A stretch of DNA of 64,000 nt from the NCBI GenBank assembly GCA_934546935.1, contig CAKTEH010000004.1, positions 15,756 to 79,755 on the forward strand. Direction: 5' to 3'. The notes below the pieces were generated by a model. It had not been told where the DNA came from. It ran no database searches and was given only the letters and a program-made list of their open reading frames with translations. Positions 54,152-64,000 of this stretch are shown here, in pieces (position 1 is the stretch's first letter; the number at the start of each line of letters is the position of its first letter). The position numbers were made by a program, and so were the translations under genes. This stretch comes from an uncultured Eubacteriales bacterium (GTDB taxonomy: Bacteria; Bacillota; Clostridia; Oscillospirales; QAMX01).

Positions 54152-55215
54152 AGTTTTTCCTCTTGGATTATTTCTGCAAGCGCTTTAAGCAGCGCTGCCA
54201 TATCTGCATCCGTGCCTATCGAGATGCGGTTGTAATCACAAATCTTTTCTGTGGAAAAATGGCGGACAAGAATACCGTGCGTTTTAAGTTTCCGATAAAT
54301 TGTTTCGCCGGGGATCCCAGGTTTTTGTACAAAAAGGAAATTTGTTTTTGAGGGCAGTACAGTAAAGCCCATTTCACGCAGCGTTTTCGCTGTCCGTTCG
54401 CGGGTTGCGATAATTTTTGCGCAGGCGTCCTGGTAATAGGCTGGCTCAGCCAGCGCCGCTGTTCCACAGGCAAGCGTCAGACGGTTGACGCTGTAGGGAT
54501 TGGTTGAAAATTTGATTTTTTCCAGATCACGGATAACTTCCGGATTTCCAAACGCGAAACCGAGCCGCGCGCCGGCAAGGGAACGGGATTTGGAATAGGT
54601 CATGACAACCAGCAGGTTGTCATATCTCTCCAGCAGCGGCAGACAGCTTTCGGCACCGAAGTCCACATAAGCTTCATCGATTAACACAAGTTCGTCTGGG
54701 TTTTCCTGCAAAATTGTCTCAATCTGCGTCGGCGTCAGCGCGAGGCCGGTCGGTGCGTTTGGGTTTGCAATAGCGATCATCGCGCCGCGGCGGAAATAAT
54801 CCGAAGGGTTAATGGTAAAATCTGCCGTAAGTGGGATTTTGACGGGTTCCAGGCCGTGCAGCTGCGCAAAGACCTCGTAAAACCCATAGCTGATTTCCGG
54901 GAAGCAAACGCGTCCGGAACGGGCAAACGCCATAAAAGCGAAGTTTAAGATATCATCGGAACCGTTGGAAACAAAGACCTGCTGCGGCATACACGAGTAT
55001 GCATCTGCAAGCGCAGCTTTCAGCGCGCGGCATTGCGGATCGGAATATAGCCGAAGCGCCGCAAGTTCCCCATGCCCGACCGCCTTTAAAACCGACGGGG
55101 AAGGGGGATAAGGGGACTCGTTGGTATTGAGCTTGATATAGTGCCGGTCCTGCGGCTGTTCTCCGGGGATATATTCGTCAAGCGCGGCATAGCGCGCGGC
55201 CATAAAGCGGCTCAT
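54148..55215 (-). CDS. hisC: Histidinol-phosphate aminotransferase
   Basis: LNTNESPYPPS and YSKSRSLAGARLG (PLP lysine) motifs. Confidence 0.93.
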   Translation of the reverse strand: MSRFMAARYAALDEYIPGEQPQDRHYIKLNTNESPYPPSPSVLKAVGHGELAALRLYSDPQCRALKAALADAYSCMPQQVFVSNGSDDILNFAFMAFARSGRVCFPEISYGFYEVFAQLHGLEPVKIPLTADFTINPSDYFRRGAMIAIANPNAPTGLALTPTQIETILQENPDELVLIDEAYVDFGAESCLPLLERYDNLLVVMTYSKSRSLAGARLGFAFGNPEVIRDLEKIKFSTNPYSVNRLTLACGTAALAEPAYYQDACAKIIATRERTAKTLREMGFTVLPSKTNFLFVQKPGIPGETIYRKLKTHGILVRHFSTEKICDYNRISIGTDADMAALLKALAEIIQEEKL

Positions 55216-56501
55216 GCCTGTCCCTCCCTACGGGTAAGGGCGCTTCGGGCGTGTCCCTCCAGCCCCTCCGCGCGAGCCATGCGGGCGATGTCCTCACTGG
55301 CTGCAGCAAGGGCTTCGGAGGTATAATAAGTAAACTGCATTTTTTTAACGAAATCATCTACCGACAAAGGGCTGGAAAAACGTGCGGTACCGGAGGTCGG
55401 CAGCGTATGGTTGGGCCCTGCAAGATAATCGCCCAAAGCCTCCGGGCAGCTCCGCCCGAGGAAGACCGAACCGGCGTTTTTTATCTGGTCAAGCCAGTCA
55501 AAAGGCGCGTCGAGACAAAGCTCAAGATGCTCAGGCGCCAGATCATTGGAAACCCGGATCGCTGTTTCAATATCGGGGACCAGGATAATTTTCCCATTTG
55601 CTTCGATAGAGGCCCGCGCGATCTCCCGGCGGGGGAGCGCGGCGAGCTGCCGCTCGAGCTCCGGGATGACGGCTTCCGCTAAAGTGCGGGAATTGGTGAT
55701 GAGGACGGCGCTTGCGCTGCGGTCGTGCTCTGCCTGGGACAAAAGATCCGCCGCGACACAGGCCGGATTGGAAATGCCGTCGGCAATAATCAGGATTTCG
55801 CTGGGTCCGGCAATCATGTCAATGGCAACCTGCCCGAAAACCTGCCGTTTCGCTTCCGCAACATAAATATTCCCGGGACCGACAATTTTGTCGGCGCGCG
55901 GGACGCTTTCCGTGCCAAAGGCTGCGGCGGCAATCGCCTGCGCGCCGCCGATGGTAAAAATCCGGTCGGCGCCGGCGATCCTCGCTGCGGCGGCAATCGC
56001 CGGGTTTAACCCATCCGGCGCCGGCGGCGTCAGTACCAGGATTTCGCGGACGCCGGCAAGCTTTGCGGGTATGATATTCATTAAAAGGGTGGAGGAAAGC
56101 GGCGCCGTTCCGCCGGGGACATAGATGGCAACCCGGTCGATCGGGAGCACTTTTTGCCCAAGAATCACGCCAGGCGTGTCATTGAGGATGTAACTTGTGC
56201 GGATCTGGCGGGCATGATAGGCACGGATATTCTCCACAGCCTTTTCCATCGACGCGATCAGCTGTACGTCAGCCTTTGCATAAGCTGCGTCGATTTCTTC
56301 CGGGCGCAGCTCCAGGTTTTTCAGACGGACACCGTCGAACGCTTCCGTATAACGGATCAGCGCATCGTCGCCGTTGTTGCGCACGTCTGCAATAATACCC
56401 GCGACACGGGCTGCAATATTGGCTTTTTCTTCTTTCCTGGACAGTATGCCGGAATTTTCCAGCTCTTCATATTGATAAATTCGGATCATAGCATTCTCCA
56501 T
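55212..56501 (-). CDS. hisD: Histidinol dehydrogenase
   Basis: GGAQAIAA, AGPSE and SQAEHD motifs. Confidence 0.95.
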   Translation of the reverse strand: MENAMIRIYQYEELENSGILSRKEEKANIAARVAGIIADVRNNGDDALIRYTEAFDGVRLKNLELRPEEIDAAYAKADVQLIASMEKAVENIRAYHARQIRTSYILNDTPGVILGQKVLPIDRVAIYVPGGTAPLSSTLLMNIIPAKLAGVREILVLTPPAPDGLNPAIAAAARIAGADRIFTIGGAQAIAAAAFGTESVPRADKIVGPGNIYVAEAKRQVFGQVAIDMIAGPSEILIIADGISNPACVAADLLSQAEHDRSASAVLITNSRTLAEAVIPELERQLAALPRREIARASIEANGKIILVPDIETAIRVSNDLAPEHLELCLDAPFDWLDQIKNAGSVFLGRSCPEALGDYLAGPNHTLPTSGTARFSSPLSVDDFVKKMQFTYYTSEALAAASEDIARMARAEGLEGHARSALTRREGQA

Positions 56502-57136
56502 TATTCTTTGTCAAGCATCTGGATCAGGGAAGAAAGCAATCTTTCAATTGCTCCATTTTTAAATTTGAAGCTTGCCTTATTGGCGATCAGCCGGGCGCTG
56601 ATCGGAAGGATTTCCGAAAAAACCTCCAAGTCATTTTCACGCAGCGTCGTCCCTGTTTCGACGATGTCCACAATGACGTCGGACAACCCCAGGATCGGTG
56701 CAATCTCAATGGAACCATTTAAGTGAATAATCTCGATGTCCCGGCTCAGGGAAGCGTAATACTGGGAGGCGATATGCGGGAATTTTGTTGCCACACGAAG
56801 GGTACGTTCTGTCGGATCCCGGAAATCTTTTTTTGCCGCGACGGCCATACGGCACCGGCCGATGCCAAGATCCAGCAGCTCATACAAATCCGGGGTATAC
56901 TCCAGAAGAATATCGCGTCCTGCTACCCCAATATCCGCTGCACCGCGTTCTACATAAACGGCGACATCCGAGGGTTTTGCCCAAAAATACCGCACGCCGT
57001 TTTCTTCGTTTTCAAAGATTAGCCGGCGCCCCGGTTCCAGGATGGACGGACAGGCAAATCCCGCATTGGAAAACTGTGCGTAAACCTGGTCGCCCAACCG
57101 GCCTTTTGGCAACGCAATATTTAAATATTCCTTCAT
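56501..57136 (-). CDS. hisG: ATP phosphoribosyltransferase, short (HisZ-dependent) form
   Basis: LNIALPKGRL and DIVETGTTLREN motifs. 211 aa with no C-terminal regulatory domain. Confidence 0.95.
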   Translation of the reverse strand: MKEYLNIALPKGRLGDQVYAQFSNAGFACPSILEPGRRLIFENEENGVRYFWAKPSDVAVYVERGAADIGVAGRDILLEYTPDLYELLDLGIGRCRMAVAAKKDFRDPTERTLRVATKFPHIASQYYASLSRDIEIIHLNGSIEIAPILGLSDVIVDIVETGTTLRENDLEVFSEILPISARLIANKASFKFKNGAIERLLSSLIQMLDKE

Positions 57137-58242
57137 TCTGCACCTCCGGAGCGCAGGTCAATGATATTGCCTGCCTGTATTTTATCAGGTATCGCCCGTG
57201 CAGACAAGACCTTTGCGCCTTTTTGCGTATGTCTTTCCACCTCGCCGACCAGCTTTGCAAGCGGTGTCTGTGCGTCGTACAGGATCAGAACGTCTACGTC
57301 TGTACCGCATAGAACGGGCGAGAGCTGATCGAGCGCGTCAAGATACACTGCAAAACCAATTGCGCGTGCCTGCCTGCCCATTTTTTGCACCAGGCGGTCG
57401 TACTGCCCTCCAGAGAGCACTTGGGTAGCGATGCCTTTGATAAAGCCCTGGAAAACCAGGCCGTTATAATAATTTAAATCGTTGACCAGGGAAAAATCAA
57501 TCCGGACATTTTTTTCCAGCCCCTGTGCCTGCAGCGCCTGGAATACCTGTTCAAGCTCGCTGAGCGCAGCAGCGGTCTTTTGCGTACTGCACAGTGGTAC
57601 CAGTGCGGCGAGGACTTTTTTCATATCGCCGTAAACCAACACCAGCGCGCACAATGCCTCCAGCAGCTGCTGCGTCAGGTTGAAACGCATACCCAGCCGG
57701 CGCAGCTCGGAAATATTCTTCTCGCGGATGTATTGCAGGATTTCCGGATAATGTTCCGGCGCAACTGAAAGCATTTCCAGAACTCCGGAGATCAGGCCAA
57801 GATGGGAGATATCCAATACGTAATCTGCACTCACCAGCGCCAGGCTTTTTGCTGCAAGGGAGATAACCTCGCACATGTTATAAATATCCACATCCCCAAT
57901 GCATTCGAGTCCCGTCTGCATCAGTTCGCGGAAAGAAGGCCCGTTCTTCCCACACCGGAAGACGTTTTCCTGATAATAGAGTTTACTGACTGTCCCTGGA
58001 GATCCCGTTGTGTTTTTTATAATCGAAATGGTAACGTCCGGTTTCAGGGCCAAAAGCGTACCGTCGGTATCGGTAAAGGTGATCATGCGGTCGCTTACCA
58101 GGAAGTCACGATTGCGGATGTAAAGGTCATACCGTTCGAAACGGCTCATTTTAAAACGCTGGTAGCCATACTGGTCGAAAAGGCGGCGCATCTGAAAAAC
58201 TGCGCGTTCTTCAATCCGGTAGCTTTGTAAATTGAGATCCAT
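57133..58242 (-). CDS. hisZ: ATP phosphoribosyltransferase regulatory subunit (HisRS paralogue)
   Basis: HisRS-like catalytic core without an anticodon-binding domain. It is the first gene of the his array and overlaps hisG by 4 nt. Confidence 0.9.
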   Translation of the reverse strand: MDLNLQSYRIEERAVFQMRRLFDQYGYQRFKMSRFERYDLYIRNRDFLVSDRMITFTDTDGTLLALKPDVTISIIKNTTGSPGTVSKLYYQENVFRCGKNGPSFRELMQTGLECIGDVDIYNMCEVISLAAKSLALVSADYVLDISHLGLISGVLEMLSVAPEHYPEILQYIREKNISELRRLGMRFNLTQQLLEALCALVLVYGDMKKVLAALVPLCSTQKTAAALSELEQVFQALQAQGLEKNVRIDFSLVNDLNYYNGLVFQGFIKGIATQVLSGGQYDRLVQKMGRQARAIGFAVYLDALDQLSPVLCGTDVDVLILYDAQTPLAKLVGEVERHTQKGAKVLSARAIPDKIQAGNIIDLRSGGAE

Positions 58243-58270
58243 GAAATGTCCCCTCAGATAATTTATTATA

Positions 58271-58304
58271 TTATCATACTATCACATTACTATGATAAAG
58301 TCAA
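58271..58304 (-). promoter_or_regulatory. Candidate his promoter with overlapping inverted repeat (possible operator)
   Basis: Minus strand TTGACT (58304-58299), 17-nt spacer, TAGTAT (58281-58276). Plus-strand TTATCATA (58271-58278) and TATGATAA (58291-58298) form an 8-bp inverted repeat bracketing the -10 and spacer. Confidence 0.45.
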
Positions 58305-58517
58305 TGGAAAGATCCTGCGCATATAAAAAACGGCAGACAGACGGGAAAAATGCTGGGGGAAGCATAGGATATGGGCATATTACCGAAAATCTGGCGGGTG
58401 TACATGAAGAAACTGTTTTAGGAAAAAGAATGGTTTAAGGGAAAGGCCGCGGGGTTTTTCGTATAAAACGCAAGATCAGAAAAAAGCATTTTTTGCATGA
58501 TTTGGCAAAATTTACAA

Positions 58518-58546
58518 TTGACATCGGATGGAAAAGGGTCTACACT
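58518..58546 (+). promoter_or_regulatory. Candidate sigma-A promoter of the aro leader/operon
   Basis: TTGACA (58518-58523), 17-nt spacer, TACACT (58541-58546). Confidence 0.6.
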
Positions 58547-58576
58547 TGACGTAGATTTTGAGGAAGGTATAGAGCA

Positions 58577-58633
58577 ATGACGAAAAATTTTGCATTTGCA
58601 TACTTTTACTTTTACTTTTATTTTGAAAAGTAA
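58577..58633 (+). CDS. Phe/Tyr-rich leader peptide (18 codons, not in ORF track): MTKNFAFAYFYFYFYFEK
   Basis: SD GAGGAAGG (58560-58567) lies 9 nt before ATG 58577, and the stop is TAA 58631-58633. It has 6 Phe and 4 Tyr codons, including 8 consecutive alternating TAC/TAT and TTT codons. It sits between a promoter and a terminator upstream of aroF. Confidence 0.7.
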   Translation: MTKNFAFAYFYFYFYFEK

Positions 58634-58702
58634 AAGTAAAGTTTGTTGCAAAGATTTCGGATATAAGAAGCACTTGAAAAAAGTAGAAAAGTGTAGTATC
58701 TC

Positions 58703-58735
58703 AGGCCTGCGGCAGACAAACCGCAGGCCTTTTTT
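58703..58735 (+). terminator. Intrinsic terminator (attenuator) in the aro leader
   Basis: AGGCCTGCGG (58703-58712), loop CAGACAAA, CCGCAGGCCT (58721-58730), then TTTTT. It lies 31 nt before the aroF start and before its SD AAAAGGAGAAG. Confidence 0.85.
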
Positions 58736-58766
58736 ATCGGGAAATTTCAGAAAAGGAGAAGTAAAA

Positions 58767-59771
58767 ATGATTGCGGTACTGAAAAAGGATACTTCGGAAA
58801 AGCAGCTTACCGGTCTGATTGAATGGCTGAAGATGATGGGGCTTGACGTCCATATTTCCAAAGGCGAGTACCAGACAATTGTCGGGCTTATTGGCGACAC
58901 CAGCCGCGTCGATATCGAGCTTTTGCAGAGTCTGGAAATTGTTGAGACGGTCAAACGGATTTCCGAACCGTTTAAAAGCGCGAACCGGAAATTCCATCCC
59001 GATGACACGATTGTAGATGTGTCCGGCGTGAAAGTTGGGGGCGGGAATTTTGTCGCCATTGCCGGTCCGTGTTCTGTCGAATCACCAGAGCAGATCTCCG
59101 CGGTGGCTGCAAGCGTAAAGGCTTCCGGCGCCTCGCTTCTGCGCGGCGGCGCATTTAAGCCGCGTACCTCGCCTTATGATTTCCAGGGCCTGAAGGCCGA
59201 AGGGATCGAGATGCTCTGTGAGGCGAAAAAGGCGACCGGACTGCCGATCGTGTCTGAAATTATCAGTATTAACTACCTTCCGCTCTTTGAAGACGTCGAT
59301 CTGATCCAGGTGGGTGCACGCAATATGCAAAATTTTGAGCTTCTGCGTGAGCTTGGACGGACGAAGAAGCCGATCCTGCTCAAACGCGGGCTGGCCAATA
59401 CGCTTAAGGAACTTTTAATGAGCGCAGAGTACATTATGGCTGGCGGGAACGAGCAGATTATCCTGTGTGAGCGCGGCATCCGCACTTTTGAAACCTATAC
59501 AAGAAATACCCTTGACCTGTCCGCTGTGCCAATGCTGCACGAACTGACACATTTGCCGGTTATCATCGACCCAAGCCATGCCACAGGAAAGGCAAGTCTT
59601 GTGCGGCCGATGGCACTTGCTGCTACGGCGGCGGGCGCGGACGGGTTGATGATTGAGGTGCATAATAATCCGCAAAAAGCTCTGTGCGATGGACCGCAGT
59701 CGTTGACGCCGGAGCAGTTTGCAGATGTGATGGAATCGGTGCGTGCGATCCGCGCGGTGGTGGAAGGATGA
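58767..59771 (+). CDS. aroF: 3-deoxy-7-phosphoheptulonate (DAHP) synthase, type I-beta with N-terminal ferredoxin-like/ACT regulatory domain
   Basis: MIAVLKKDTSEKQL...HISKGEYQTIVGLIGD...FHPDDTIVDVSGVKVGGGNFVAIAGPCSVES parallels the Thermotoga maritima DAHPS N-terminus, and the KDO8PS-like core follows. Start set to ATG 58767; the track start at 58590 lies inside the leader. Confidence 0.92.
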   Translation: MIAVLKKDTSEKQLTGLIEWLKMMGLDVHISKGEYQTIVGLIGDTSRVDIELLQSLEIVETVKRISEPFKSANRKFHPDDTIVDVSGVKVGGGNFVAIAGPCSVESPEQISAVAASVKASGASLLRGGAFKPRTSPYDFQGLKAEGIEMLCEAKKATGLPIVSEIISINYLPLFEDVDLIQVGARNMQNFELLRELGRTKKPILLKRGLANTLKELLMSAEYIMAGGNEQIILCERGIRTFETYTRNTLDLSAVPMLHELTHLPVIIDPSHATGKASLVRPMALAATAAGADGLMIEVHNNPQKALCDGPQSLTPEQFADVMESVRAIRAVVEG

Positions 59772-60604
59772 CGGTCGGTATTGTTGGACTCGGGCTTATC
59801 GGCGGTTCTCTGTCGAAAGCGTATAAGGCGGCGGGGGATACAGTTTACGGTTTTGACCGCGACGCAAAGGTTATGGCGCTGGCTACGGCTGACGCTGCGG
59901 TTGACGCGGCCTTAAGCCAGGATACAGTTTGCAGGTGTGAACTGATTTTTGTTGCGCTTTACCCCCATGCAGCTATTGCATGGCTAAAAGAAATGGCGCC
60001 GTATATTGCAAAGACTGCGGTTGTAATCGATGCCTGCGGCGTTAAGCAGGAGGTCTGCCAGGAAGGTATGGAGCTTGCCCGCCGCTTTGGCTTCCTGTTT
60101 GTCGGAGGCCATCCCATGGCGGGTACCCACCGCTCTGGGTATGCTGCATCCCGCGCGGATCTGTTTGCCGGCGCATCGATGGTGGTTGTCCCACCGGTGT
60201 TCGATGATATGGCGCTGCTTGTCCGGATCAAAGCGCTGCTTGCGCCGATGAAGCTGGGGCATATTAAGGTCTGCACTGCCAAGGTACATGATGAGATGAT
60301 CGCCTATACCTCTCAGATGCCGCATATTGTTTCCAACGCCTTTGTCAAAAGCCCGTATTATGAGAATCACGAAGGCTTCAGCGGGGGAAGCTTCCGGGAC
60401 TTTACCCGCGTAGCTGAATTGAATGAACATATGTGGGCGGAGCTATGCCTTTACAACCGTGAGGTATTGATGGATGAGCTTTTGCGGCTGCAGGCGCATC
60501 TGGAGGACTATCGTACGGCATTGGAAGCGCGCGACCAGGGGGCGCTGGAGTCCCTCTTCCGGGAAGGCAGCGAACGAAAAACCGGAAAAAAGCAGGAACA
60601 ATAA
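59768..60604 (+). CDS. tyrA: Prephenate dehydrogenase
   Basis: MTVGIVGLGLIGGSL Rossmann start and GGHPMAG motif. Its ATG overlaps the aroF stop (ATGA). Confidence 0.88.
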   Translation: MTVGIVGLGLIGGSLSKAYKAAGDTVYGFDRDAKVMALATADAAVDAALSQDTVCRCELIFVALYPHAAIAWLKEMAPYIAKTAVVIDACGVKQEVCQEGMELARRFGFLFVGGHPMAGTHRSGYAASRADLFAGASMVVVPPVFDDMALLVRIKALLAPMKLGHIKVCTAKVHDEMIAYTSQMPHIVSNAFVKSPYYENHEGFSGGSFRDFTRVAELNEHMWAELCLYNREVLMDELLRLQAHLEDYRTALEARDQGALESLFREGSERKTGKKQEQ

Positions 60605-60621: not shown

Positions 60622-61680
60622 ATGGAAGAAATCAAAGTAAAAGCCTCTCGGGATTACCGGGTTTCCATCGGCGCGGGACTTTTTTCGCAGCTTTGTACCC
60701 GTATACCCTGCCGTACCGGTACGGCAGTTATTGTCAGCGATGAGGCAGTCGCCGCGCTCTATCTGAAAACGGTAAGCACTGTGCTGGAAGCAGGCGGCTA
60801 TCGTGTACAAAGCTTTCTTGTACCGCAGGGGGAGGAAGCGAAGAGCCTTTTGTGGTATGAAAAGCTTCTTTCTTTCCTTGCAGATGCGCATGTGACGCGC
60901 TCGGATACGATTTTTGCGCTTGGCGGCGGCGTAGTAGGAGATCTTTCCGGCTTCGCTGCGTCGAGTTATCTGCGCGGCATTGCTTATGTCCAGCTGCCTA
61001 CGACCCTGCTTGCGGCGGTCGATTCCTCGGTTGGCGGGAAGACGGCGATTAACCTGCCGGAGGGTAAAAACCTGGTCGGAGCATTTTATCAGCCGCATGC
61101 GGTAATTATGGATACCGATACCCTGTTCACGCTGAGTGCGGAAGTTTTTGCCGATGGATGCGCGGAAATCATAAAATACGGCGTACTGGCAGATGAAGCG
61201 CTGTTTTCTCTGCTGGCTCAGCGGGTTCTGACGGAAAACCGCCAGGATACGGCGCTTTTGGAAACGGTAATCGCGCGCTGCGTCGCGATCAAGCGGGATA
61301 TTGTCGCTATGGACGAGCGGGATACCGGCGTACGGAATCTTTTGAATCTTGGGCATACCTTTGGGCATGCAATTGAAAAATGCAGCGGTTTTTCTATCCG
61401 GCATGGACATGCCGTCGCCGCCGGGATGGCGATGGTCGGCCGGGTTGCGGCGCGGCACGGGATATGCGATGCGCAGGTGCCGGAAAAGATTGAAGCGCTA
61501 CTGCGCGCTTACGGATTGCCGGTGGAAAGTAATTTTTTTCCGAACGAGCTTCTTGCCGCATTGCGCTCCGACAAGAAAATCAGCGCAGGCGCCCTGCGTC
61601 TGATTCTCCCGGAACGTATCGGCGCCTGCCGTATGGAGGAAATCCCACTTGACGCGCTTGATGCGTATTTGTTGGGGTGA
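60622..61680 (+). CDS. aroB: 3-dehydroquinate synthase
   Basis: LGGGVVGDLSGFAA, LPTTLLA.VDSSVGGKT and GHTFGHAIE motifs. Confidence 0.95.
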   Translation: MEEIKVKASRDYRVSIGAGLFSQLCTRIPCRTGTAVIVSDEAVAALYLKTVSTVLEAGGYRVQSFLVPQGEEAKSLLWYEKLLSFLADAHVTRSDTIFALGGGVVGDLSGFAASSYLRGIAYVQLPTTLLAAVDSSVGGKTAINLPEGKNLVGAFYQPHAVIMDTDTLFTLSAEVFADGCAEIIKYGVLADEALFSLLAQRVLTENRQDTALLETVIARCVAIKRDIVAMDERDTGVRNLLNLGHTFGHAIEKCSGFSIRHGHAVAAGMAMVGRVAARHGICDAQVPEKIEALLRAYGLPVESNFFPNELLAALRSDKKISAGALRLILPERIGACRMEEIPLDALDAYLLG

Positions 61681-62936
61681 GTGGAATGGAAATTACGCTT
61701 TTCCGTCCGGATCCGCCGGAACGCGTACAGGCGGTTTCTTCAAAATCTGACGTGCACCGCCTGCTTATCTGCGCTGCTTTGGCCGATGCGCCGACGGTAA
61801 TTTCCTGTCCTGACCGCAATGCGGATATTCTGGCGACAGTGCGTGTGCTGACGGCATTGGGCGCGGGGATTTCCTATGAAAATGGGACATATTCCGTCCT
61901 CCCGATTCAAACGCTTCCGGATGGGGAAGTGTTGCTTGACTGTGGGGAAAGCGGTTCTACGCTGCGCTTTATCCTTCCGGTCGCCGCTGCGCTTGGCGTT
62001 CCAGCCCGGCTCATCGGGCAGGGCCGGCTGCTTGCGCGGCCTATGCGGCCGCTGACGGACTGCCTGTGCGCGCATGGCGCGAAGATTTGTGCCGGAGACG
62101 ACGGCATCTGGCTGCGCGGCAGGCTTGCGCCGGGATGCTATGAAATTTCCGGAAACATTTCTTCCCAATACATTACGGGTCTTCTGCTTGCGCTTCCCCT
62201 GTTGGATGGGCCAAGCCGGATTGTATTGACTGCTCCCCTGGAAAGCGCGCCCTATGTGGATTTGACGCTTGCCGCTCTATCCCGTTTTGGGATAAGTGTT
62301 GGTGTGTCGGCCGAGGGGTATGGGATTGTTCCTGCCCGGCTGCATACGCCGCAGACTCTGTGCGCGCAGGGAGACTGGTCGGGCGCTGCATTCTGGCTTG
62401 CCAGCGGAGCCATTGGCCCGCATCCGGTGCGTGTGGAGGGCCTTGATCCGGATTCCTGCCAAGGGGACCGGGAGATCTGCGGACTTTTATCGCGCTTCGG
62501 CGCGCAAGTGGAGTGGACTGACCATGCAGTAACTGTATTCCCGGCCCCGCTGCACGGTATAGAAATTCAAGCGCAGGACATCCCTGATCTGGTGCCGGTG
62601 TTGGCCGTTGTAGCGGCGGCGGCGCAGGGGGAAACGCGCATTACAGGCGCGGCACGGCTGCGGATGAAGGAAAGCGACCGTATTGAAACTGTGTGCGCTT
62701 TGCTGCGCGCCTTGGGTGGGAAGGCGGATGCGTTGGATGATGGCTTATGTATCTACGGCTGCGGATCCCTGTGCGGCGGCGTTGCCAATGGTGCAAATGA
62801 CCACAGGATCGTGATGAGCGCGGCAGTTGCGGCGCTGATCTGTCAGAAGCCGTTGGTGATCCGCGGGGCGGAGGCCGTAGCAAAGTCGTATCCCGGTTTT
62901 TTTGACCTGTACCGGCAAACAGACGGGAGGAAATGA
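61677..62936 (+). CDS. aroA: 3-phosphoshikimate 1-carboxyvinyltransferase (EPSP synthase)
   Basis: SKSDVHRLLICAAL, GESGSTLRF, ESDRI and DHRIVMSAAVAAL motifs. The start is either GTG 61677 (overlapping the aroB stop) or ATG 61686. Confidence 0.93.
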   Translation: MSGMEITLFRPDPPERVQAVSSKSDVHRLLICAALADAPTVISCPDRNADILATVRVLTALGAGISYENGTYSVLPIQTLPDGEVLLDCGESGSTLRFILPVAAALGVPARLIGQGRLLARPMRPLTDCLCAHGAKICAGDDGIWLRGRLAPGCYEISGNISSQYITGLLLALPLLDGPSRIVLTAPLESAPYVDLTLAALSRFGISVGVSAEGYGIVPARLHTPQTLCAQGDWSGAAFWLASGAIGPHPVRVEGLDPDSCQGDREICGLLSRFGAQVEWTDHAVTVFPAPLHGIEIQAQDIPDLVPVLAVVAAAAQGETRITGAARLRMKESDRIETVCALLRALGGKADALDDGLCIYGCGSLCGGVANGANDHRIVMSAAVAALICQKPLVIRGAEAVAKSYPGFFDLYRQTDGRK

Positions 62937-62943
62937 GGAACGT

Positions 62944-64000
62944 ATGTCAGGAACATTTGGAAAGAAGTTAAAGATATCCATATTCGGGGAATCACACGGC
63001 CCGGCTATTGGCCTGCTTGCCGACGGGTTTCCTGCCGGGGAAAAGGTGGATTTGGAGGAGCTTTCCCGTTTTCTTGCCCGACGCAGCGCTGTTGGGAAGT
63101 CCTATGCAACCGGGCGCAAGGAAGCGGATATACCGCATTTTCTGTCCGGTTTTCTGGACGGCCGGATCCTGTCTTCTCCGCTTTGCGTAATGATTGAAAA
63201 TACTGCGCAGCATTCTTCTGATTACGATAACCTGCGCGATATTCCTCGTCCCGGCCATGCTGATTATACAGCCTATTGCCGGCATGGACGGGATGTGGAT
63301 CTGCGCGGGGGCGGACATTATTCCGGGCGTCTGACCGCGCCGCTGTGTGTGGCGGGAGGGATTGCGATTCAGATCCTGCACCGGCGCGGTATTGAAGTGT
63401 TTGCACATATCCATAGCCTGCATGGTATCACGGATATGCCCTTTGATCCGATTGCTGTCGGCGCGCATGAACAGACACAGCTTGCCTGCGCCCAGCTGCC
63501 CGTGTTGGATGCGCAGGCGGGGGAAGCGATGCTTGCCGCAGTTCTCAAGGCAAAAGACAACTGCGATTCGGTTGGCGGCGTTATTGAATGCGCGGTAACG
63601 GGCCTCGCTCCCGGAAGCTGCGGGGAACACATATTTGACGGGCTGGATGGGCACATTGCGCAGGCGTTATTTGCCGTTCCTGCTGTTAAAGGAGTGGAAT
63701 TTGGGGCTGGTTTTTCCTGCGCGCAGTTGTATGGGAGCGAGAATAACGATCCCTTCTCGGTCGGGCCTGACGGCAGGATTACCTGTACCGGCAATCATCA
63801 CGGCGGCATTCTTGGTGGGATGGCCTCAGGCATGCCGGTTATCGTGCGGGCAGCAGTTAAACCGACGCCGTCAATTTACAAATGCCAGCCAAGCGTATCC
63901 ATACGCGAAAACTGCGATGTGCAGCTTGAGATCAAGGGCAGGCACGACCCATGTATTGTGCCGCGCGCTGTACCTTGTATAGAAAGCGCGGTAGCGGTGG
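62944..64000 (+). CDS. aroC: Chorismate synthase (3' end beyond window; not in ORF track)
   Basis: Hand translation from ATG 62944 gives MSGTFGKKLKISIFGESHGPAIGLLADGFPAGE...RPGHADYTA...GGGHYSGRLTAP. The frame stays open to the window edge. Confidence 0.9.
   Translation, partial: MSGTFGKKLKISIFGESHGPAIGLLADGFPAGEKVDLEELSRFLARRSAVGKSYATGRKEADIPHFLSGFLDGRILSSPLCVMIENTAQHSSDYDNLRDIPRPGHADYTAYCRHGRDVDLRGGGHYSGRLTAPLCVAGGIAIQILHRRGIEVFAHIHSLHGITDMPFDPIAVGAHEQTQLACAQLPVLDAQAGEAMLAAVLKAKDNCDSVGGVIECAVTGLAPGSCGEHIFDGLDGHIAQALFAVPAVKGVEFGAGFSCAQLYGSENNDPFSVGPDGRITCTGNHHGGILGGMASGMPVIVRAAVKPTPSIYKCQPSVSIRENCDVQLEIKGRHDPCIVPRAVPCIESAVAV

Follow-up and report, generated by a model that had tools for sequence, protein, structure and literature searches.

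How does a member of the Clostridia match expression of its aromatic biosynthesis operon to the supply of Phe and Tyr? The question is raised by a locus in a 64,000-nucleotide stretch of DNA (here termed the window; contig CAKTEH010000004.1) from an uncultured Eubacteriales bacterium, in which a short open reading frame (ORF) rich in Phe and Tyr codons and an intrinsic terminator precede the operon aroF-tyrA-aroB-aroA-aroC. In Firmicutes, RNA-level control of aromatic genes is usually exerted by T-box and TRAP systems. The element at this locus is read here as a ribosome-mediated (leader-peptide) transcription attenuator of the operon that responds to charged tRNA-Phe and tRNA-Tyr, and a probability of about 85% is assigned to this reading. 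Direct support comes from the anatomy of the leader, its conservation, covariation in three helices, the periodicity of the codons and the geometry of the ribosome footprint relative to the helices.

At the DNA sequence level, an earlier inspection made from the letters of the window alone (the sequence-only reading) had described a promoter, TTGACA-17-TACACT, ahead of the DAHP synthase gene, an unlisted 18-codon ORF with a strong Shine-Dalgarno (SD) sequence in which ten codons are Phe or Tyr, and about 70 nucleotides (nt) beyond it a GC-rich hairpin with a T-run followed by the aroF SD. All of these are found at the locus (Table 1), and the gene order of the operon is borne out by Pfam. Transcription is predicted to start at about 58553, and 30 nt separate the 3′ end of the promoter from the leader ATG. 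The ORF has six Phe and four Tyr codons; two of the Phe codons, at 58589 and 58595, lie outside the alternating run of codons 9–16, and within the run the hexamer UACUUU is found in three to four tandem copies. The terminator stem consists of 10 pairs, eight of them G-C (−20.5 kcal/mol), and is followed by six T residues. The leader stop codon is 69 nt from the terminator and 133 nt from the aroF ATG, and the T-run is 31 nt from this ATG. No promoter-like site was found between the leader stop and aroF (58634–58766), and thus aroF transcripts must cross the terminator.

The leader element is confirmed as real and not a chance arrangement. On both strands of the window, the mini-ORF is the sole ORF of 6–60 amino acids with at least 6/10 Phe, Tyr or Trp. 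A run of six codons of the form T-W-Y (T, then A or T, then C or T) occurs once in the window, at the leader, where 0.04 are expected. The predicted leader transcript folds with z = −4.7 relative to dinucleotide shuffles and displays three hairpins, termed A, B and the terminator; in hairpin A the Phe and Tyr codons pair with AAAAGUAAAAGUAAAG... just 3′ of the stop codon. As in other attenuators of this class, the operon transcript has at its 5′ end a short ORF equipped with a ribosome-binding site and a start codon, this ORF contains a cluster of codons for amino acids of the regulated pathway, and an intrinsic terminator with no promoter after it lies before the first structural gene. There are also three mutually exclusive helices, designated 1:2 (which includes the regulatory codons), 2:3 and 3:4 after the four RNA regions that form them.

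The element is abundantly found upstream of aroF in related genomes. The comparative set consists of the best 80 aroF orthologue loci (65–76% protein identity) from a one-genome-per-species collection. Nearly all stem from Clostridia metagenome-assembled genomes and isolates, of three NCBI orders, and source labels include Oscillospiraceae (Angelakisella, Pseudoflavonifractor, Lawsonibacter, Faecalibacterium), Lachnospiraceae (Agathobacter) and Anaerovoracaceae (Emergencia). A Phe/Tyr-rich mini-ORF is present within 300 nt upstream of aroF on the coding strand at 60 of the 80 loci, as against two of 80 on the opposite strand and a background of 0.006 per 300 nt elsewhere in the loci. Among 66 candidate leaders, an SD core 4–12 nt 5′ of the start is found in 65 (compared with 17.5% of all ATG triplets), the start codon is ATG in 64, and a promoter with at least 10/12 matches ends approximately 30–39 nt before the leader ATG in 52 (3/300 for control segments). 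Most leaders have a strong intrinsic terminator some 20–60 nt before aroF, with 56/66 passing a filter of −9 kcal/mol, and the terminator and T-run are kept in nearly all family members.

A covariance model built from 49 leaders matches 61 of 81 sources at E<1e-3, always directly upstream of aroF, and ten of these sources are outside the seed. The window has a single match, at 58575–58738, with 90 bits. The gene order aroF-tyrA-aroB-aroA is shared by 45 or more of the 80 loci. Conservation of a Phe/Tyr mini-ORF plus terminator ahead of aroF orthologues had been put forward as a check on the proposal, and it is observed at about 60 of 80 loci in Oscillospiraceae, Lachnospiraceae and Anaerovoracaceae.

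Do these sequences show signs of being translated? In 49 sequences, the columns homologous to window codons 9–14 have T at the first codon position in 92%, A or T at the second in 93%, and C or T at the third in 100%. The T-W-Y periodicity is also present in codons 9–10, which the consensus structure places in an unpaired internal loop, and therefore the constraint is on the coding of Phe and Tyr and not on base-pairing. Across leaders the codon run is always in frame with the SD and ATG. Two or more codons for each of Phe and Tyr are present in the run in 49 of 53 leaders, and Trp is essentially absent. The sequence-only reading had considered a mixed Phe/Tyr leader to be unusual; the leader is indeed mixed, but mixture is the rule within the family, and there are precedents in aroR and in a predicted Acholeplasma motif, both discussed below.

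The peptide itself is less constrained than the RNA. The leader stop codon is 14–70 nt from the terminator within the family, and the length and C-terminus of the peptide vary while the downstream RNA sequence is kept. The conserved RNA segment AAAAGUAAAAGU...UUGCAAAG is read in one frame in the window and in another in its relatives, whose leaders go on with ...KSKSDFCCK. Because the stop position and the frame after the run vary and the RNA does not, it is the translation of the Phe and Tyr codons, and not the peptide, that appears to matter. With respect to codon usage at 53 loci, Phe codons of the leader runs are 87% TTT, compared with 45% in the aroF genes next to them; for Tyr, leader runs and aroF genes are alike, with ∼60% TAC. 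The TTT excess may come from pairing with the A-rich region 2, or from selection for a slower codon.

The UACUUU repeats raise the question of whether the leader RNA is instead a protein- or tRNA-binding attenuator of T-box, TRAP or PyrR type, with the repeats as a binding array and the ORF as an accident of U-rich sequence. The three to four copies of the hexamer at 58601–58624 would suit such an array, T-box and TRAP control is common for aromatic genes in Firmicutes, a genuine T-box is present in the same window, and a terminator with alternative helices would fit equally well. Yet the repeat is irregular in relatives, which have YYYYY, FFYYF or YFYSYF, and it still always encodes Phe and Tyr in frame with the SD and ATG; the third codon positions are only C or T and the second only A or T, even in unpaired codons. 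No match to the T-box family RF00230, whose model comprises stem I with the specifier loop and the T-box sequence of the antiterminator bulge, is obtained at E up to 10 (58200–59000), compared with 107.9 bits for the true T-box of the window. There is also no (G/U)AG array of the kind bound by TRAP, in which about 9–11 triplets are spaced 2–3 nt apart; six scattered triplets are found in 58553–58766 and the longest chain is one unit. A factor-dependent attenuator is therefore considered very unlikely.

The N-terminal part of the peptide, with the motif F-A-A/F-E/A-Y, is fairly conserved. This conservation could point to an action of the upstream ORF mainly on translation, by re-initiation or by changes in the accessibility of the aroF ribosome-binding site, or to arrest by the nascent peptide, and upstream ORFs near structural genes have been proposed in the literature to raise translation by re-initiation. 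However, the pairing between UUUGCAGC and GCUGCAAA in hairpin A accounts for the conserved F-A-A-E. The 133 nt from the leader stop to the aroF ATG, with the terminator in between, exceed the reach of re-initiation, predicted folds leave the aroF SD unpaired, and the terminator and T-run are conserved in nearly all members. The translational alternative is thus barely credible, and attenuation of transcription is the preferred reading.

At the RNA level, the family displays conserved alternative pairings. The consensus of region 1 is UUUGCAGCUG.AUAYUUUUACUUUUACUUU and that of region 2 is AAGUAA.AGUG.UUUUUGCUGCA.A; regions 3 and 4 have GCU.CGCAGUGAAA...CUGCGG.GC followed by a U-run. Regions 1 and 2 pair through UUUGCAGC with GCUGCAAA and UACUUUUACUUU with AAAGUAAAAGUG. 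In the alternative 2:3 pairing, the UUUUUGCUGC segment of region 2 pairs with GCAGUGAAA, which comprises the 3′ half of the terminator 5′ arm and the loop, and this accounts for a terminator sequence more conserved than termination alone would require.

Covariation was assessed on a structure-blind MAFFT alignment, with per-sequence folds projected onto alignment columns before pairs were counted. For helices 1:2 and 3:4, 80% of cells are paired compared with 35–48% when the partner is slid, and the covariation score is 0.39 as against ∼0.1, a value reached in 0/500 shuffles. For helix 2:3, the antiterminator, 77% of cells are paired compared with 33–56%, and the score is 0.31 as against 0.08–0.18, again reached in 0/500 shuffles; the tested helices come from folds of these very sequences, so the slid-partner control is inflated for all three. 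Compensatory changes are observed in each of the three helices. In the terminator stem they affect seven of eight pairs in the RNAalifold alignment and 10 of 12 pairs in the projected-helix test. RNAalifold on the raw MAFFT alignment recovers only the terminator, and on the sub-alignment of hairpin A it returned nothing.

An independent test gives the same picture for the antiterminator. Duplexes between region 2 and the cognate terminator have a mean of −13.6 kcal/mol, as against −10.7 kcal/mol for non-cognate pairs (permutation z = −7.6, p<1e-4). Individual loci illustrate the compensation: CACAGGUUAG pairs with CUAAUUUGUG at locus L005 and GCACGGAAUCGC with GCGAUUUGUGC at L004, where the window has UGCGGCAGAC and GUUUGUUGCA.

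These properties also bear on whether the promoter, mini-ORF and terminator constitute a separate short transcription unit, such as a small protein gene or a small RNA, or an insulating terminator, with no control of aroF by Phe and Tyr. The terminator is strong (−20.5 kcal/mol) and wins every equilibrium fold, and some small hydrophobic peptides are known to be functional in themselves. A unit of this type, though, would leave aroF without a transcript of its own, as no promoter-like site follows the leader stop. Furthermore, in about 60 genomes the element goes with aroF or pheA-aroF, and no other site in those loci carries it, the length and C-terminus of the peptide are not conserved although the RNA is, and a conserved, covarying antiterminator would be purposeless in a simple terminator. 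A separate unit or insulator is thus highly improbable, and the leader is better described as an attenuator of the operon that follows it.

In the window, hairpin A extends over 58588–58653 (−23.2 kcal/mol). The antiterminator helix, 58641–58650 with 58708–58717, has 10 base pairs (−14.0 kcal/mol), and 9/9 pairs fall in the family consensus columns. It encloses hairpin B, whose sequence is lineage-specific and is an insertion relative to the other aligned sequences, and the whole antiterminator domain (58641–58717, with hairpin B) has −18.0 kcal/mol. Helices 1:2 and 2:3 compete for 58644–58650, and helices 2:3 and 3:4 for 58708–58712. With the ribosome footprint modelled as 29 nt, an A site on any of codons 9–16 places the footprint over region 1 and its end no further than 58635, so that the antiterminator strand stays free; with the ribosome at the stop codon it extends to ∼58644 and partly covers this strand. 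In modelled transcripts truncated at 58720, the end of the terminator loop, the antiterminator has a probability (P) of 0.91–0.97 when the ribosome is stalled on codons 9–16 and of 0.52 when it is at the stop codon.

The layout of leader-peptide attenuation recognized in the sequence-only reading is thus supported by conservation in orthologues, T-W-Y periodicity and helix covariation, and from this layout we infer a mechanism consisting of stalling, kinetic competition and a physiological response. Transcription would start at about 58553 and the 18-codon leader would be translated as it is made. With Phe and Tyr plentiful, the ribosome would reach the UAA at 58631, its footprint over the first bases of the antiterminator strand (58641–58650); after its release hairpin A (58588–58653) would re-form and sequester this strand, the terminator (58703–58730 plus T-run) would form, and most transcripts would end near 58735. 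With Phe-tRNA or Tyr-tRNA scarce, the ribosome would stall on codons 9–16 (58601–58624), covering region 1 and leaving region 2 single-stranded. The segment 58708–58717 would then pair, on emerging, with 58641–58650 in a helix stacked around hairpin B, and half of the terminator 5′ arm plus the loop would be occupied before the 3′ arm exists, with read-through into aroF as the outcome. A leader that is not translated would form hairpin A and then the terminator. Since Tyr and Phe codons take turns in the run, the operon should be derepressed when either amino acid is short (OR logic). Trp would not be sensed, since the leader has no Trp codon.

Several points weigh against this mechanism, beyond the origin of the covariation-tested helices noted above and the response of the aroR leader described below. 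Masking of the leader by ribosomes, which had been suggested as a folding test, speaks for the proposal in that it reveals an antiterminator whose strand is free with a ribosome on codons 9–16 and partly covered at the stop codon, but the full-length transcript does not switch. In the latter the terminator has P ∼0.96 at equilibrium under every ribosome mask, and forcing the antiterminator costs 11–12 kcal/mol. Read-through must therefore rest on co-transcriptional kinetics, as in the classical trp system. The truncated transcript forms the antiterminator without a ribosome as well (P = 0.88), since only the outer stem of hairpin A must open; the off state consequently relies on hairpin A forming first and persisting while RNA polymerase makes region 4, i.e. 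on a kinetic trap. The antiterminator in the window covers only 5/10 bases of the terminator 5′ arm, plus the loop. In addition, ∼15–20 of the 80 orthologous loci do not have the element; no replacement riboswitch or T-box was found in these leaderless loci, and one of them, L001, has a promoter directly ahead of aroF. The equilibrium behaviour of the full-length transcript and of the ribosome-free truncated one is a weakness of the proposed switch and not support for it. The kinetic requirement, the antiterminator formed without a ribosome and the coverage of half an arm do not contradict the attenuator model.

Table 1. Features of the aro leader and of the operon downstream (positions in the window)
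Feature	Position	Strand	Evidence or detail
Promoter of sigma-A/sigma-70 type, TTGACA-17-TACACT	58518–58546	+	10/12 consensus matches
Leader ORF SD, GAGGAAGGT	58560–58568	+	8–9 nt 5′ of ATG 58577
Leader ORF, MTKNFAFAYFYFYFYFEK, with TAA stop	58577–58633	+	codons 58577–58630, TAA 58631–58633
Region 1, 5′ arm of hairpin A, inside leader ORF	58588–58620	+	fold; helix conserved and covarying
Regulatory codon run Y-F-Y-F-Y-F-Y-F, codons 9–16, proposed stall sites	58601–58624	+	run of six TWY; family periodicity
Region 2, 3′ arm of hairpin A, AAAAGUAAAAGUAAAGUUUGUUGCAAAG	58626–58653	+	fold; helix conserved and covarying
Antiterminator strand in region 2, GUUUGUUGCA	58641–58650	+	same alignment columns as family 2:3 helix
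Hairpin B, spacer hairpin enclosed by antiterminator helix	58660–58700	+	−6.1 kcal/mol
Intrinsic terminator, regions 3:4	58703–58735	+	stem 58703–58712 with 58721–58730, then T-run
Region 3, 3′ half of terminator 5′ arm and loop, UGCGGCAGAC	58708–58717	+	pairs with antiterminator strand
aroF SD, AAGGAG	58753–58758	+	sequence
aroF, DAHP synthase with N-terminal ferredoxin-like regulatory domain, first regulated gene	58767–59771	+	PF00793 (DAHP_synth_1), PF18152 (FXD)
tyrA, prephenate dehydrogenase	59768–60604	+	Pfam
aroB, 3-dehydroquinate synthase	60622–61680	+	Pfam
aroA, EPSP synthase	61677–62936	+	Pfam
aroC, chorismate synthase, continues past window end	62944–64000	+	Pfam

Other Phe/Tyr-rich ORFs elsewhere in the orthologous loci are mostly noise and have no SD; two, at L033 and L052, are true leaders in displaced positions. 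In L033, a leader with the peptide MNGRLNLNGTKAYYFYFSQSFYFSAGYF and its terminator (1769–1960) precede pheA (1969–2940; prephenate dehydratase with an ACT domain), and pheA in turn precedes aroF-tyrA-aroB-aroA; L041 is probably alike. Thus, the attenuator would also govern the Phe branch in some genomes. In L052 the leader (…FGFPFAFYFYGY…) and terminator are at 2487–2650, ∼400 nt upstream of aroF, and the gap contains an odd G-rich stretch, including a run of ∼18 G residues, that may be an assembly artefact or an insertion.

Six of the loci (L022, L026, L045, L060, L067 and L076) are labelled Bacteroidaceae, Alloprevotella, Spirochaetales or Planctomycetaceae. Their AroF proteins are 67–70% identical to the Clostridia-type protein and the operon order is alike, which points to wrongly binned contigs or to an operon passed on horizontally; L026 has a degenerate leader that scores 48 bits. 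Six further metagenome contigs, L081–L086, encode an identical AroF. Their leader region (270 nt) is nearly identical as well, except that one strain-level relative, L086 (126–396), has lost precisely one TAC-TTT (Tyr-Phe) unit through an in-frame deletion of 6 nt. The repeated hexamer appears liable to frame-preserving slippage. On L081–L086 the interval from hisZ to aroF is empty of automatic gene calls, and public data systematically lack an annotation of the leader ORF.

In the operon itself, tyrA starts at ATG 59768, as indicated by the sequence and by gene calls on the identical metagenome contigs; GTG 59684, the mechanical ORF start, is probably not the real one. The aroF stop and tyrA start overlap as ATGA (59768–59771), which suggests translational coupling. 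Divergent from the leader is hisZ-hisG-hisD (55212–58242, minus strand), with a promoter-like TTGACT-17-TAGTAT at 58304–58276 on the same strand. A His leader ahead of these genes was sought as a sign of further use of leader peptides in the organism, and no His leader, T-box or terminator was seen 5′ of hisZ in the spacer 58243–58517. The spacer between his and aro also has a 48-codon ORF (58292–58438, plus strand) and a GC-rich palindrome followed by T residues near 58445–58460.

Two other regulatory RNAs are found at the far end of the window, both on the minus strand. A T-box leader at 1643–1896 (107.9 bits) precedes a gene for a class I/II aminotransferase (374–1642), and the organism thus appears to use both T-box control and leader-peptide attenuation. 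A cobalamin riboswitch is located at 63–281 (69.4 bits); the gene it controls lies past the left end of the window.

A wider proposal, towards which the balance tips slightly, is that the window element belongs to an undescribed RNA family widespread in Clostridia, a "Clostridial aro F/Y leader". In Oscillospiraceae, Lachnospiraceae and Anaerovoracaceae of gut and rumen, transcription of the common aromatic pathway (aroF-tyrA-aroB-aroA-aroC, in some cases together with pheA) would be controlled chiefly by this family, in the role that T-box and TRAP systems play in Bacilli; through its interleaved codons the leader would act as a two-input OR gate for charging of tRNA-Phe and tRNA-Tyr.

Leader-peptide attenuation is a textbook mechanism that has been documented almost entirely in Proteobacteria and Actinobacteria. 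The element described here adds a large and well-conserved family in Clostridia, which are dominant in gut and rumen communities, with an ORF that gene callers skip and no Rfam model. If confirmed, the family would give genome annotation a missing regulatory element and would explain how these anaerobes set the flux through the shikimate pathway, a matter that bears on gut aromatic metabolites and on engineering. It would also provide a compact sensor of natural origin that reads two amino acids together, and its ∼60 diverged copies with three covarying alternative helices would be a comparative set for the evolution of attenuators. No concept is overturned by the Clostridia element, which is conceptually unsurprising.

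How does the element compare with known systems? In a scan of the window, no Rfam family reaches its gathering threshold at the leader locus. The best subthreshold matches (58200–59000, E up to 10) are RUF4, with 26.7 bits, and Phe_leader (RF01859), with 24.1 bits and E = 0.15, both well short of a gathering score of 55. The latter aligns end to end with 58582–58737, but the element is not a member and the resemblance is architectural only. The T-box, TRAP and leu/phe-leader readings are rejected on the basis of the missing T-box match, the missing (G/U)AG array and the subthreshold Rfam scores. Literature searches, whose coverage was incomplete, found no published description of a Clostridia aro F/Y leader family. 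The element is apparently uncatalogued, yet of a well-known kind of regulator.

T-box (RF00230) and TRAP systems have the same output, in that the supply of an amino acid decides between terminator and antiterminator in a 5′ leader. Their sensor differs, being uncharged tRNA or a Trp-bound protein and not a translating ribosome. The leaders of E. coli pheA (pheL) and pheST are likewise four-region attenuators, with a Phe-rich peptide, Phe codons within the 1:2 hairpin and a terminator after it. They differ in that they are proteobacterial, are wholly or nearly Phe-only and control pheA or pheST, whereas the Clostridia leader precedes the common pathway together with tyrA. In Firmicutes, a His leader peptide upstream of hisS or hisZ in Bacilli has been described as a 'regular' attenuator that replaces a T-box (Naville and Gautheret, 2010; PMC2965389), and before that His leader of Bacillus, according to the same survey, no leader peptides had been shown outside Proteobacteria and Actinobacteria. 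It concerns another amino acid, other genes and another class of bacteria.

The closest predicted system is the uORFC-13-1 motif (Brewer et al., 2021; PMC8632094), whose 24 representatives all precede aroF and were reported only from Acholeplasma and environmental sequences of unidentified origin. Its predicted upstream ORF has a promoter, a ribosome-binding site, a start codon and a U-run that encodes at least one Phe, and an intrinsic terminator follows immediately; the motif also has one extra base-paired element. The window element is similarly located directly upstream of aroF, with Phe codons in an upstream ORF and then a terminator. As compared by description only, the two differ in that alternation of Tyr and Phe is not mentioned for uORFC-13-1, and its published range in Acholeplasma argues against identity with the Clostridia element.

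Among systems that have been tested, the aroR leader of Corynebacterium glutamicum (Phe-Tyr-Phe) is located ahead of aroF, and ribosome stalling there raises transcription (Neshat et al., 2014, as related in PMC11802643). In that account, attenuation is affected by Phe and not by Tyr; if so, dual sensing of Phe and Tyr is not guaranteed for the Clostridia leader. As far as this description goes, both systems have a short ORF of mixed Phe and Tyr codons before a DAHP synthase operon, and they differ in that aroR is from Actinobacteria and has three regulatory codons, compared with 8–10 in the Clostridia leader. Of the tested systems aroR is the closest, with a resemblance that is functional and an origin that is probably independent.

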